A stretch of 10,290 nt of DNA, from positions 1-10,290 of IMG/VR virus record IMGVR_UViG_2778261009_000001, one strand, 5' to 3'. The stretch is from a virus (lineage: Duplodnaviria; Heunggongvirae; Uroviricota; Caudoviricetes). The position numbers and the translations under genes are program-made. A model generated the notes under the pieces. That model had not been told where the DNA came from, made no database searches, and saw only the letters and a list, made by a program, of their open reading frames with translations. Of the stretch, positions 3,166 to 6,483 are shown piece by piece (within the stretch, counting starts at the first letter, position 1; each line of letters opens with the position of its first letter).

Positions 3166-4682
3166 TGTTTTGGAAAAAGAAAAAGACAGAGGAAACACCA
3201 CAAGCTAAGAAAAGAACAAAGAGTAAAATTGAATTACTACCAAGTACTTTGAAACGTGACCTTGCACAGATTCGTGGAACATCTTCACCCGTTGTAAGTT
3301 TTGGTTTTACCGCAGGTAGTAGCACGTACAACATTAATAATGTAATCCGTTGGTTCCTTGGTGAAATGCGTTCTACTTCCCGTGAAGCTGCACTTCATAA
3401 CCCCATTGCACGCAAATACGTATCCCTCTCTGTTGATGGTGTTGTAGGTAGCATGGGGGTTTATATAAAACCAGCAGCAGAAATCGAAAACGCTACTCCT
3501 GATGAATTGCATACTATCAATAAGAAGTTAGAAAAATTATTTGATCGCTGGAGTTCTAACCCAGAGCGTTTCAGTCTTGATGGACAGATGACTCTTGATG
3601 TCTTCCAACAAACTTTAGAAAAAGTTCGCTGTACTGATGGTGAAGCATTTGTACGAATCCATAAGATTAATGGAACAATTAAAATGGAAATTCTTGATTC
3701 AGCACGTCTGACTCAGATGAATAACCAGATTCTATCTAATGGAAATTTTATAAGCAACGGGATTGAATATAATTCAAATCATAAGCCTGTTAATTACTGG
3801 ATGTGTGCATATAACCCAATCACATATACATATGATGCAACAAACTTTGACGTTATTCCTGCATCAGAAATATTCCATTATTTCATCCCTGAAGCAATGG
3901 GACAGGAACGTGGTATTCCAGACCTGATCGCAACCAGTAAATTAATGGAGGACCTAAAGAATTTTACAGAGGCTTCTTTGGTGGCAAAACGTGTAGCGGC
4001 ATCTTCTATGGCGTTTATTACTAACGGTCAATCTAATACAGACACCGTAGAACTAAACGAAGACCAAGATGATATGGTTACTGCGAAATATTCAGAGTTT
4101 TTAGAACCTGGTGCAATTTACGAACTTAGTTCAAATCAGGATATTAAGACAGTAAACCCACAGGCAGGTGTAGACCGGATTCATGAATTCACTGATGAAC
4201 TACTATCACAAATTGCAATGGGCTTGAATTGTACGAAGATGTCACTTCTCGGGGATACAAGTAATGCCAGCTTCTCAGCCGCAAAACTTTCAGAACGGAT
4301 GCAAAGTACCACTTTCAGTACAAGAACAAACGCATTAGTTACAAAGGTTTTAAAACCAATGTACTTAGCCTGGTTAAAAAATGAAATGGTAAATAACAGT
4401 GAATTGAATCTTAGTTTCTCTGACTTTGACGATATTTCTACAGTACGAATGATCCCACAGAAGCCTATAAGCCTTGATCCTTTAAAAGATATTCAGACAC
4501 AGGTTGCCCAGATCGACGCAGGAATTAAATCTAAGACTCAGGTGATTAGCGAAAATGGTGGTGATGCTCGTTTGGTATTTGAAGAAATTGAAAAGGAAAA
4601 AGAAATTGTAAATAAGGAAGTTACATTAAATGATGAAACACAACCAGAAGAGGGAAATGACGTTACCGATAAACGCGATTAA
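3165..4682 (+). CDS. Portal protein, lambda gpB-like
   Basis: Blocks align by eye with remembered lambda gpB: [26 protein letters not shown] vs MLDTLQNTQLQSAIVKAMYAATI, and [37 protein letters not shown] vs FEQSLLRYIAAGLGVSYEQLSRNYAQMSYSTARAS. Start chosen at the ATG in the TAATG stop/start overlap at 3163-3167, with GGGGGA 8-13 nt upstream. The ATG at 3150 is an alternative. Confidence 0.85.
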
Positions 4683-6483
4683 TAAAGATAAACGCACAAT
4701 CGAAGTGGCATTTGCAACAGAAACACCTGTCTCTCGATATTTTGATGATGAACTCTATTATGAGATTCTTCTATGTTCTGATGAAAATGTAGACCTACAA
4801 CGAATTAATAATCGTGGTGCCGTTCTATTTGATCATCAACGTGATAAACCCATTGGTGTAGTTCTTAGTACAAGAATCGATTCTGATAAAGTTTGTCGGG
4901 CAACTTTACGCATTAGTGAAGTTGGTCTTGGTGAAACTATGTGGGGAATGATTCTTGAAGGAACCATGTCACATATTAGTGTTGGGTATAACATCAACGA
5001 TTATTACATGGAAAGTAATAACGTGTTTGTTAATAAGTGGGAGCCTACAGAGATCTCACTGGTCACAGTACCCGCAGATGTAAATTGTTCTATCGGTCGT
5101 TCACACGGTGAAGATAATAACTTTAACAAGGAAGTTAAAATGAAAGAAGAAGATAAAAAAGAAGAACGTGAAACTGAATTACCAGAAGAAGAGGGTATTG
5201 AAGAAGAACGTGAAACTGAACCTGAAGTAGTAGAAGAAGAAATTAGTGAAGAAGAGCGTGAAGAAGAAATTAGTGATGAAGAACTTGAAGGACTAATTTC
5301 TAAACGTCCTGAATTACTAAAGAAATTTAAAGACTCTGAAGAAGAAGAACTAAATAGTAATGAAGCTGAAGCTGAAGCTGAAGCTGAAGCTGAAGCTGAA
5401 GCTGTTGATGTAGCCGAAGAAGAACGTAAACGCGAGCTAACTTCAATCGGTGCAGTACTGCAAGTAGACGTATCAGATGCAATTGAAAATGGAATTTCAA
5501 TTTCTGATTTTAAACGTTCACTAAATACAACAAATAACAAAACTCCTAATCATGATAAGGAAATCAAAATGGAAAAATCTGTAATTAATGGTCTAATTCG
5601 TGCAGCTAACGAAGGTAAACCTTTTGACGGTCAACGTCTTGATGTACCACTGAATCAAATTGTTCGTGCAACTTCTACTGGTGCAGCTACTGGTGGTGCT
5701 CTTGTTAAAGAACAACACGTTGATTCTTATATTGATGTACTGCGTGCAAACTCTATTTTTGCTCAACTACCAATTCAAACTTATTCCGGTTTAGAAGGTG
5801 ACGGTAATCTGGTTCTACCAAAGCTATCTTCTGACTTCACCGAAATGTTCGCATTTATCGCGGAAGGTGAAGATTCTCCAGAAGTAGATGCAAAGTTTGA
5901 AAAACTGGTACTGTCTCCAAAGACTTTTTCCGGTAGCGTACCAATTACCCGTACTCTAATTAAGAGTGCAGACACCGCAGAACGTTATGTACAAAGTGCA
6001 ATGGTGAATGGTGCAGGTCTGAAACTTGAGAAAGAAATTCTAACTAAAATTATCGCAGCAGCACCAAAACAAACCCTAACCGCTGCAATTACCCATGAAG
6101 ATGTACAGGAAGCTCTCGGTAAGCTTGCAGCCGCAAACGTTCGTACTGAGAACGTAGTAGCAGTTGTGCACCCATCTACCGCCGCAGTTCTACGCAGTAC
6201 CATCGTGGCAAGTAATACCGCTGCTAAGTTTATGGTTGAAGGTCAACGCTTTGATGCATGGTTGTGTGACGCCGTTAAAGTAATTGAATCTACCCAGGTT
6301 ACAGCAGGCCAAATCGTTTTTGGTGACTATTCCAATATCGTACTGGCTTCATGGGGTGGTTTGACTGTGGATCGTGATGACACATCCCTACGTGCTTCAC
6401 AAGGAATCGTTCTGCGTACCTTTGCATATATCGACCATGCCGTAGCACACGAAGAAGCCTTCCTTGTAGTTAAACTGGCGTAA
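4630..6483 (+). CDS. Prohead protease / scaffold-like acidic linker / major capsid protein (HK97 fold) fusion protein
   Basis: Single uninterrupted 617-aa ORF. Residues ~10-160 match the HK97-type prohead protease pattern ([29 protein letters not shown] vs HK97 gp4 VNHDANKRLGR, ACSFAF, KVSLLDVSVVTFPA). Residues ~170-270 are Glu-rich low complexity. Residues ~330-617 match the HK97 major capsid pattern ([34 protein letters not shown]-terminal [23 protein letters not shown]). RBS AAGGAAG at 4614-4620. Confidence 0.8.
5362..5403 (+). repeat. Perfect (GAAGCT)7 hexanucleotide tandem repeat encoding (Glu-Ala)7 in the capsid-fusion linker
   Basis: Seven contiguous GAAGCT units read directly from the sequence, in frame with the 4630-6483 ORF. 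Nearby 18-nt perfect direct repeats GAAGAACGTGAAACTGAA at 5161-5178 and 5203-5220. Confidence 0.9.

Follow-up and report, generated by a model that had tools for sequence, protein, structure and literature searches.

The single open reading frame (ORF) at 4630-6483 of the window (the whole 10,290-nucleotide (nt) stretch of the virus record IMGVR_UViG_2778261009_000001 that was analysed) joins a prohead protease, an acidic linker and a major capsid protein (MCP), and it contains two in-frame ATG codons, each preceded by a Shine-Dalgarno (SD) motif: one after the protease (5140, Met171) and one before the capsid domain (5569, Met314). The comparison with relatives indicates that both internal start sites are maintained by selection. 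Our best reading, which we consider probable, is that nested in-frame initiation of the lambda C/Nu3 style extends here through the capsid protein. The first-pass annotation of this DNA had proposed such nested products (full fusion, linker plus capsid, and capsid alone), and the comparative evidence supports this proposal. The coordinates of the features are collected in Table 1.

Both pairs of motif and ATG were confirmed in the window: AAGGAAG before ATG 5140 and TAAGGAAA before ATG 5569 are in frame with the ORF, and each has a 5-nt spacer. Based on the limits of the protease domain in Pfam and in the AlphaFold2 (AF2) model, ATG 5140 therefore stands directly after the protease; ATG 5569 stands 41 codons before the recognisable capsid fold. 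The strength of each site was scored as the predicted pairing energy with the 3' end of the 16S rRNA in kcal/mol (anti-SD score). The energies of the internal sites (-5.5 and -6.2, respectively) are comparable to that of the ORF's own start (-6.3), and true gene starts in the window range from -2.6 to -8.4; several of these share the motif (T/C)AAGGA(A/T). The + strand of the window has 216 ATGs that are not gene starts; 3.2% of these reach -5.5 kcal/mol or lower and 1.4% reach -6.2 or lower. Looking at the ORF itself, 5140 and 5569 are the only two of its nine internal Met codons with such energies. The local mRNA structure is weaker than the ORF average at all three starts, which fall within the 15-26% least structured positions. 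Concerning internal promoters, the search gave three promoter-like matches against 5.5 expected, none of them ahead of the internal starts. The predicted product from Met171 is a linker plus capsid protein of 447 amino acids (aa) and 48.9 kDa, and that from Met314 is a scaffold-free capsid protein of 304 aa and 32.5 kDa. The full-length start is also marked in relatives: 9-12 nt ahead of the aligned position they have motifs of the (A/T/C)AAGGA type or GGGAA (-5.1 to -6.2). ATG 4657, which has GAGGGA just 1 nt upstream, was considered as the true start and rejected, as the relatives and their motifs align to 4630.

The sample of DNA used for the comparison comprised 38 non-identical genes of the family: 27 from the window, E. 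coli, genome and IMG/VR loci, and 11 from exact-protein look-ups. Some of the latter are just 34-50% identical in the capsid part; the scan of genome contigs yielded two loci. At the pre-capsid site, Met314 is invariant in all 121 aligned proteins, and AAGGA followed 7-10 nt on by an in-frame ATG is found in 38/38 genes (-5.5 to -6.2), down to about 35% identity. The peptide from the SD to the Met varies, with two to four codons in between (DKEIKM, VKENKM, VKDNKTM, INKDVNTM, PKENKEM and GKESSVM); in these sequences the varying peptide and spacer fit an SD-spacer-ATG arrangement better than a protein motif. In 26/26 close relatives Lys310 is encoded by AAG, which makes up 25% of the Lys codons gene-wide. 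Of 11 conserved Lys columns, Lys310 is the only one with an AAG bias (the other ten are AAA-dominated or mixed), and the Lys codon of the motif is AAG also in all 11 more distant genes. Codon identity among same-residue pairs is 0.945 in the five columns at this site, the second highest value, versus a gene mean of 0.617. These patterns of codon use and spacing indicate that the pre-capsid start (5569) is under selection.

The start after the protease shows a different pattern, which the same alignment marks as a maintained feature with positional turnover. The exact position of ATG 5140 is restricted to the closest relatives: Met is found in that column in 3/121 proteins. A site at one other column, about 13 residues downstream of the Met171 column, is present in 25/27 family members as GAGGAA-N6-ATG (or with GAAGGA or GGGGAA), and the remaining two, the window and its twin in E. 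coli FDN-24, have the 5140 site in its place. In the GAGGAA motif, the first Glu codon is the rare GAG in 19/23 (GAG is 10% gene-wide), the four GAA cases being the GAA-GGA variants, and this bias is unique to that column among 36 conserved Glu columns. A Citrobacter relative (L048) has lost the site at the usual column (-1.0) and has GATAAGGAAATCAAAATG at Met168 instead; the same 18-nt string is found at its own pre-capsid site. Another relative (L049) has GAGGGT-N9-ATG at Met170. Altogether, an SD-ATG pair lies within 50 residues after the protease in 34/38 genes, at no fewer than four (at least 4) alignment positions. The first-pass annotation had asked whether relatives conserve the internal pairs: this holds for the presence of a pre-capsid and a post-protease pair (38/38 and 34/38, respectively), and it does not hold for the position of ATG 5140 beyond the closest relatives. 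It had also allowed that purine-rich Lys and Glu codons could create the motifs by chance, and here the comparison of relatives speaks against chance and in favour of selection at both sites. Distant isolated phages with this fusion also have an SD-preceded Met after the protease: VP882 (-7.1), phiHAP-1 (-5.9), ep3 (-6.0), RcCronus (-6.0), R4C (-9.5), DCP80 (-6.2) and Mica (-4.6). Cyanophage S-LBS1 has no post-protease Met with an SD at the aligned place.

As a control, the internal Met codons outside both boundaries were scored in the 38 genes, and 21/321 have an SD-like upstream sequence. The same scoring of lambda gene C gives one Met that stands out from 17, Met309 (-10.8), which would start a C-terminal product of 131 aa, a size reported for lambda Nu3. 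The RefSeq record of lambda (NC_001416, 5132 vs 5342) starts nu3 from Met239 of C, with a weak SD (-2.7), which makes this control less firm. The sole strong internal SD of lambda C (CAGGAGGGCGA-ATG, -10.8) precedes Met309.

Several points weigh against nested initiation. Twenty of the 21 control hits fall in one column of the protease (GLGNTMW), where the codons for Gly-Leu-Gly-Asn spell AGGAA; protein constraint alone can therefore mimic an SD-Met site, and for this reason the evidence from rare codons and turnover matters. SD-like strings are common in high-GC phages, in which they precede about 25% of internal Mets. The post-protease site is missing from 4/38 relatives, so some lineages can do without this start. 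In distant fusions of the VP882/ep3/R4C type there is no pre-capsid Met but a longer delta-like segment. In a subunit initiated at Met314, 41 residues would precede the ordered N-arm of the capsid protein. The literature searched yields no protein, ribosome-profiling or toeprint data for any family member. Finally, the prophage in the window is damaged, and so is its closest relative (FDN-24).

The first alternative is that only the full-length polyprotein is made, that its pieces arise by proteolysis alone, and that K-[E/D]-x-x-M and E-E-x-x-M are peptide features for cleavage or docking. A polyprotein in which each subunit brings its own protease and scaffold is workable in principle, and the GLGNTMW column, the four genes without a post-protease site and a recurrent linker motif, [ST]-L-N-[ST], which suggests conserved cleavage sites in the same regions, would all fit it. 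It leaves unexplained that the rare codons AAG (26/26) and GAG (19/23) are found exactly where they complete the SD, and that the residues and the spacing between motif and Met drift under a fixed AAGGA and ATG. A peptide feature also fits poorly with a post-protease site at four or more positions in differing sequence contexts, and with the identical 18-nt cassette at both sites of the Citrobacter relative. We therefore consider this alternative improbable. In the second alternative, the internal SD-like sequences do not initiate translation but make elongating ribosomes pause at domain boundaries, giving the protease and scaffold domains time to fold ahead of the following domain. Both motifs do lie in linkers directly after folded units, and pausing would account for the conservation of AAGGA and GAGGA at the nucleotide level; an ATG, however, is unnecessary for pausing, yet one is present in frame in every gene at the pre-capsid site and in all but four after the protease. 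The pausing effect of internal SD motifs is, moreover, said to have been seriously questioned by Mohammad et al. in 2016, and we regard this alternative as very unlikely. Equally hard to credit is a third, that the sites are functionless relics of separate protease, scaffold and capsid genes fused via loss of stop codons: separate protease and capsid genes are the norm among relatives, and such fusions have been proposed in another lineage (PMC8508860), but outside these sites the gene's synonymous positions are well mixed (the mean codon identity and the other Lys columns given above), unselected sites should have decayed across relatives of 35-70% identity and are instead universal or replaced where lost, and no natural split variant was found, the candidates being frameshift artefacts.

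Concerning the mechanism that nested initiation would provide, we infer initiation at the internal sites, a role in stoichiometry and cleavage as follows. Initiation at ATG 4630 would give the full protease-scaffold-capsid polyprotein of 68.3 kDa, ribosomes on AAGGAAG and ATG 5140 would give the scaffold-capsid protein, a counterpart of HK97 gp5 with its delta domain, and ribosomes on TAAGGAAA and ATG 5569 would give the scaffold-free capsid subunit. All three products share the capsid domain, so we propose that they co-assemble. The covalent link would then bring the protease and scaffold segments into the procapsid on a subset of the subunits, and the ratio of protease to scaffold to coat would be set by the relative initiation rates instead of by separate genes. 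After assembly, the S78 protease would trim the chain back to the capsid N-arm (about aa 355), and the trimmed capsid protein, starting from Gly355 by analogy with R4C, would have about 28 kDa. A broader statement, to which we give an even chance, is that fused protease-capsid genes are nested operons in one frame, in which initiation at conserved internal starts controls the proportions of protease, scaffold and coat. The post-protease start, found from enterobacterial prophages to VP882, phiHAP-1, ep3, R4C and RcCronus, would then be the widespread element, the second start of this clade would make scaffold-free coat the bulk building block, and one ORF would replace lambda C, Nu3 and E.

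The fusion itself is already known. The first-pass annotation stated that protease and capsid share one 617-aa frame, which the sequence and the Pfam domains bear out; its premise that such a fusion is unusual did not survive, as the protein matches phrog_617 from end to end (E = 3.7e-91, aa 3-615 versus profile positions 6-622 of 626), and fused homologues number in the hundreds. A second match, of the N-terminal half, is to phrog_4523 ('major head and protease protein'). At E < 1e-10 the search gave 749 homologues, of which the best 120 are all 590-654 aa long and contain both Pfam domains; among the relatives, a P0087-type E. coli prophage is present on 125 contigs. The same architecture is found at about 28-34% identity in the isolated phages VP882, phiHAP-1, ep3, Mica, RcCronus, R4C and S-LBS1. 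In MD8-like Pseudomonas phages a single gene encodes protease, scaffold and MCP (PMC8508860), and 'major capsid and protease fusion' is a routine annotation in actinophages. No natural variants split at the domain borders were found among the relatives. Two IMG/VR relatives with 57% identity (L029 and L030) were considered as split variants and rejected: they share a frameshift inside the capsid domain (about 2790-2830), and are therefore pseudogenes. The match region of L030 is about 290 nt longer. The 309-aa 'stand-alone capsid protein' P0137 was rejected as well, as it results from a frameshift on a 1.5-kb contig where the upstream frame continues the fusion. The best match to the window protein in the phage database is in Escherichia phage DCP80 (PQ671644.1, 5789-7789). 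This record is classified as a T4-like Gaprivervirus (141 kb) and has a lambda-type portal and a protease-capsid fusion near its left end; it may be chimeric or contain prophage DNA.

The arrangement can be compared with several known systems. Lambda C/Nu3 and Mu I/Z share with it an internal SD and ATG in the frame of the head protease; the shorter, protease-free C-terminal product and the ratio set by translation that follow from these in lambda are proposed here from the sequence. The head module of the window is otherwise lambda-like, with a Nu1/gpA-type terminase, a gpW-like protein and a lambda-family portal upstream. In lambda, however, the protease is of the S49/ClpP type and the capsid protein E is separate, whereas the protease of the window is of the S78 (HK97) type, the nesting runs through the capsid protein, and there are two internal starts instead of one. 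HK97 gp4/gp5 combines, as is proposed for the window, an S78 protease with an HK97-fold capsid protein whose N-terminal scaffold extension is removed by the protease, and the predicted Met171 product would be the analogue of gp5; HK97 uses two genes and has a delta domain on every subunit, whereas the window has a fused gene and a third, scaffold-free subunit is predicted. The same order of domains in a single ORF is found in the members of phrog_617/phrog_4523, in Hapunavirus (VP882 and phiHAP-1), Jilinvirus ep3 and Cronusvirus (R4C/RcCronus), and also in the MD8-like Pseudomonas phages and the actinophage fusions, although MD8 has a ClpP-type protease and a Mu-like MCP. To these the window clade adds the conserved pre-capsid start, which the distant fusion phages lack. 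Herpesvirus UL26/UL26.5 similarly gives in-frame nested products with a common C-terminus that targets the capsid protein, but there the shorter product comes from its own promoter and transcript and the capsid protein is separate, whereas no internal promoter signal is seen in the window. In the literature searched we found no description of internal starts in protease-scaffold-capsid fusions, and the paper on the R4C structure says nothing on a protease or cleavage. Thus the fusion and nested protease/scaffold translation are known already, and what appears to be new, judging from the literature searched, is the presence of conserved internal starts within the fusion, one of which would give scaffold-free coat.

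The coat protein is needed in hundreds of subunits and the protease in far fewer, and how phages with a fused gene avoid a 1:1 ratio has been unclear; conserved internal starts would be a simple answer. For annotation, thousands of genes would be affected: those named 'major capsid protein' or 'capsid and protease fusion' may have two or three products each. The sites would also be a clean example of synonymous-site selection that preserves ribosome-binding sites within a coding region, and the turnover of site position could be used to find nested genes elsewhere. Expression constructs of such genes for capsid nanoparticles would yield mixtures unless the internal starts are considered.

Table 1. 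Features of the window and of the protease-linker-capsid ORF, with their positions.
Feature	Position	Strand	Basis
Nu1-like small terminase	228-785		
Large terminase, gpA-type	700-2616		
gpW-like protein	2626-3165		
Portal, lambda-family	3165-4682		
SD TAAGGAAG of the full-length start, 9 nt before ATG 4630	4613..4620	+	anti-SD energy -6.3
Protease-linker-capsid ORF, 617 aa, 68.3 kDa	4630..6483	+	start as in RefSeq FDN-24 copy
HK97-type prohead serine protease domain, aa 1-157	4630..5100	+	PF04586, AF2
Acidic disordered linker, aa 158-258	5101..5403	+	45 Asp/Glu in 101 residues
Internal start 1: AAGGAAG (5128-5134), 5 nt, ATG 5140 (Met171)	5128..5142	+	-5.5 kcal/mol
In-frame (TGAAGC)7.3 microsatellite, (Glu-Ala)n, in the linker	5361..5404	+	Tandem Repeats Finder
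Conserved helical mini-domain (...DFKRSL), aa 259-298	5404..5523	+	AF2 helices, pLDDT 71-77
Internal start 2: TAAGGAAA (5556-5563), 5 nt, ATG 5569 (Met314)	5556..5571	+	-6.2 kcal/mol
Conserved 41-residue segment, aa 314-354, internal start 2 to capsid N-arm	5569..5691	+	invariant residues
Major capsid protein domain, predicted HK97 fold, aa 355-617, with stop codon	5692..6483	+	PF05065, 8GTA
Head-tail and tail genes	3' of the 4630-6483 ORF		
IS629 end	10153-10290		

The protease domain was identified by Peptidase_S78 (PF04586: 26.9 bits versus a cut-off of 21, aa 63-156) and by a match to phrog_80 'head maturation protease' (E = 2e-13), and AF2 models it confidently at aa 4-148 (predicted local distance difference test score, pLDDT, about 80). 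His69 (4834-4836) and Ser117 (4978-4980) are invariant in 20 sequences and form a putative catalytic pair, with a spacing which we take to resemble that of His65/Ser114 in HK97 gp4. The region that follows (aa 149-258) is disordered, with pLDDT < 50, and the linker sequence diverges strongly between lineages. Its hexanucleotide microsatellite is perfect and is two units (12 nt) shorter in the FDN-24 copy; the near-identical proteins P0001 (612 aa) and P0002 (601 aa) also differ in length at the microsatellite. The mini-domain, on the other hand, is strongly conserved to relatives of about 35% identity and is found also in distant phages; from its conservation and predicted helices we consider it a candidate scaffolding or coat-binding module. 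For the segment at aa 314-354, a short propeptide and a disordered N-terminus are both possible. The capsid domain is identified by Phage_capsid (PF05065: 68.7 bits versus a cut-off of 24.2, aa 355-615) and by a phmmer match to the capsid protein of roseophage R4C (8GTA, E = 4.9e-14, aa 355-610), of which the deposited chain has 268 aa and its first residue aligns with Gly355. For aa 299-617, the AF2 model gives pLDDT < 50, owing to a shallow alignment.

The motif [ST]-L-N-[ST], mostly encoded as (T/A)CA CTA AAT A(G/C)N, has three copies in relatives (alignment columns 229-232, 316-319 and 389-392), which lie after the protease, in the middle of the linker and directly before the pre-capsid start; two of these copies are found in the window (about 5347-5358 and 5515-5526). 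Judging from their sequence, they are possible maturation cleavage sites. The synonymous conservation at 'LNSN' (aa 241-246) was rejected as an extra element: it is in keeping with the repeated peptide motif and with the codons CTA/AAT/AGT, which are frequent in this family. A minus-strand ORF (5004-5540, 178 aa) was also rejected, as a by-product of the GAA-rich linker.

The window comprises the head and tail module of an AT-rich E. coli prophage (39% GC). A 99.4% identical copy is present in E. coli FDN-24 and FDN-9; its ORF is named 'phage major capsid protein' in RefSeq and has the same start. The ORF overlaps the end of the portal gene by 53 nt. The first ATG of the portal gene (3150) is without an SD (+0.6), and the ATG at 3165 lies behind GGGGGA (-8.4) and is the RefSeq start in FDN-24; portal translation probably starts at 3165. 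The tail gene at 8913-10290 (phrog_2871) is interrupted at about aa 418 by IS629, the intact FDN-24 homologue having 952 aa, and the prophage of the window is therefore probably defective. In the FDN-24 twin (L001, 4474-6217 and 10652-12152), the large terminase is split into two coding sequences and an IS3-family element lies inside the gene equivalent to window 6790-7227; the damage differs between the two copies, and their decay is independent. In the INPHARED set, identity to isolated phages does not exceed about 34%; all known members of the clade thus come from prophages and metagenomes. The GC content of the capsid gene is 37-44% across the clade, and that of the Enterobacteriaceae hosts is about 50-55%. 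The 560-aa protein encoded at 7231-8913 combines an N-terminal region like a major tail protein (phrog_158, aa 3-140) with C-terminal tail-fibre-like repeats and a domain of this kind (several phrogs, aa 241-558), which is an unusual combination.

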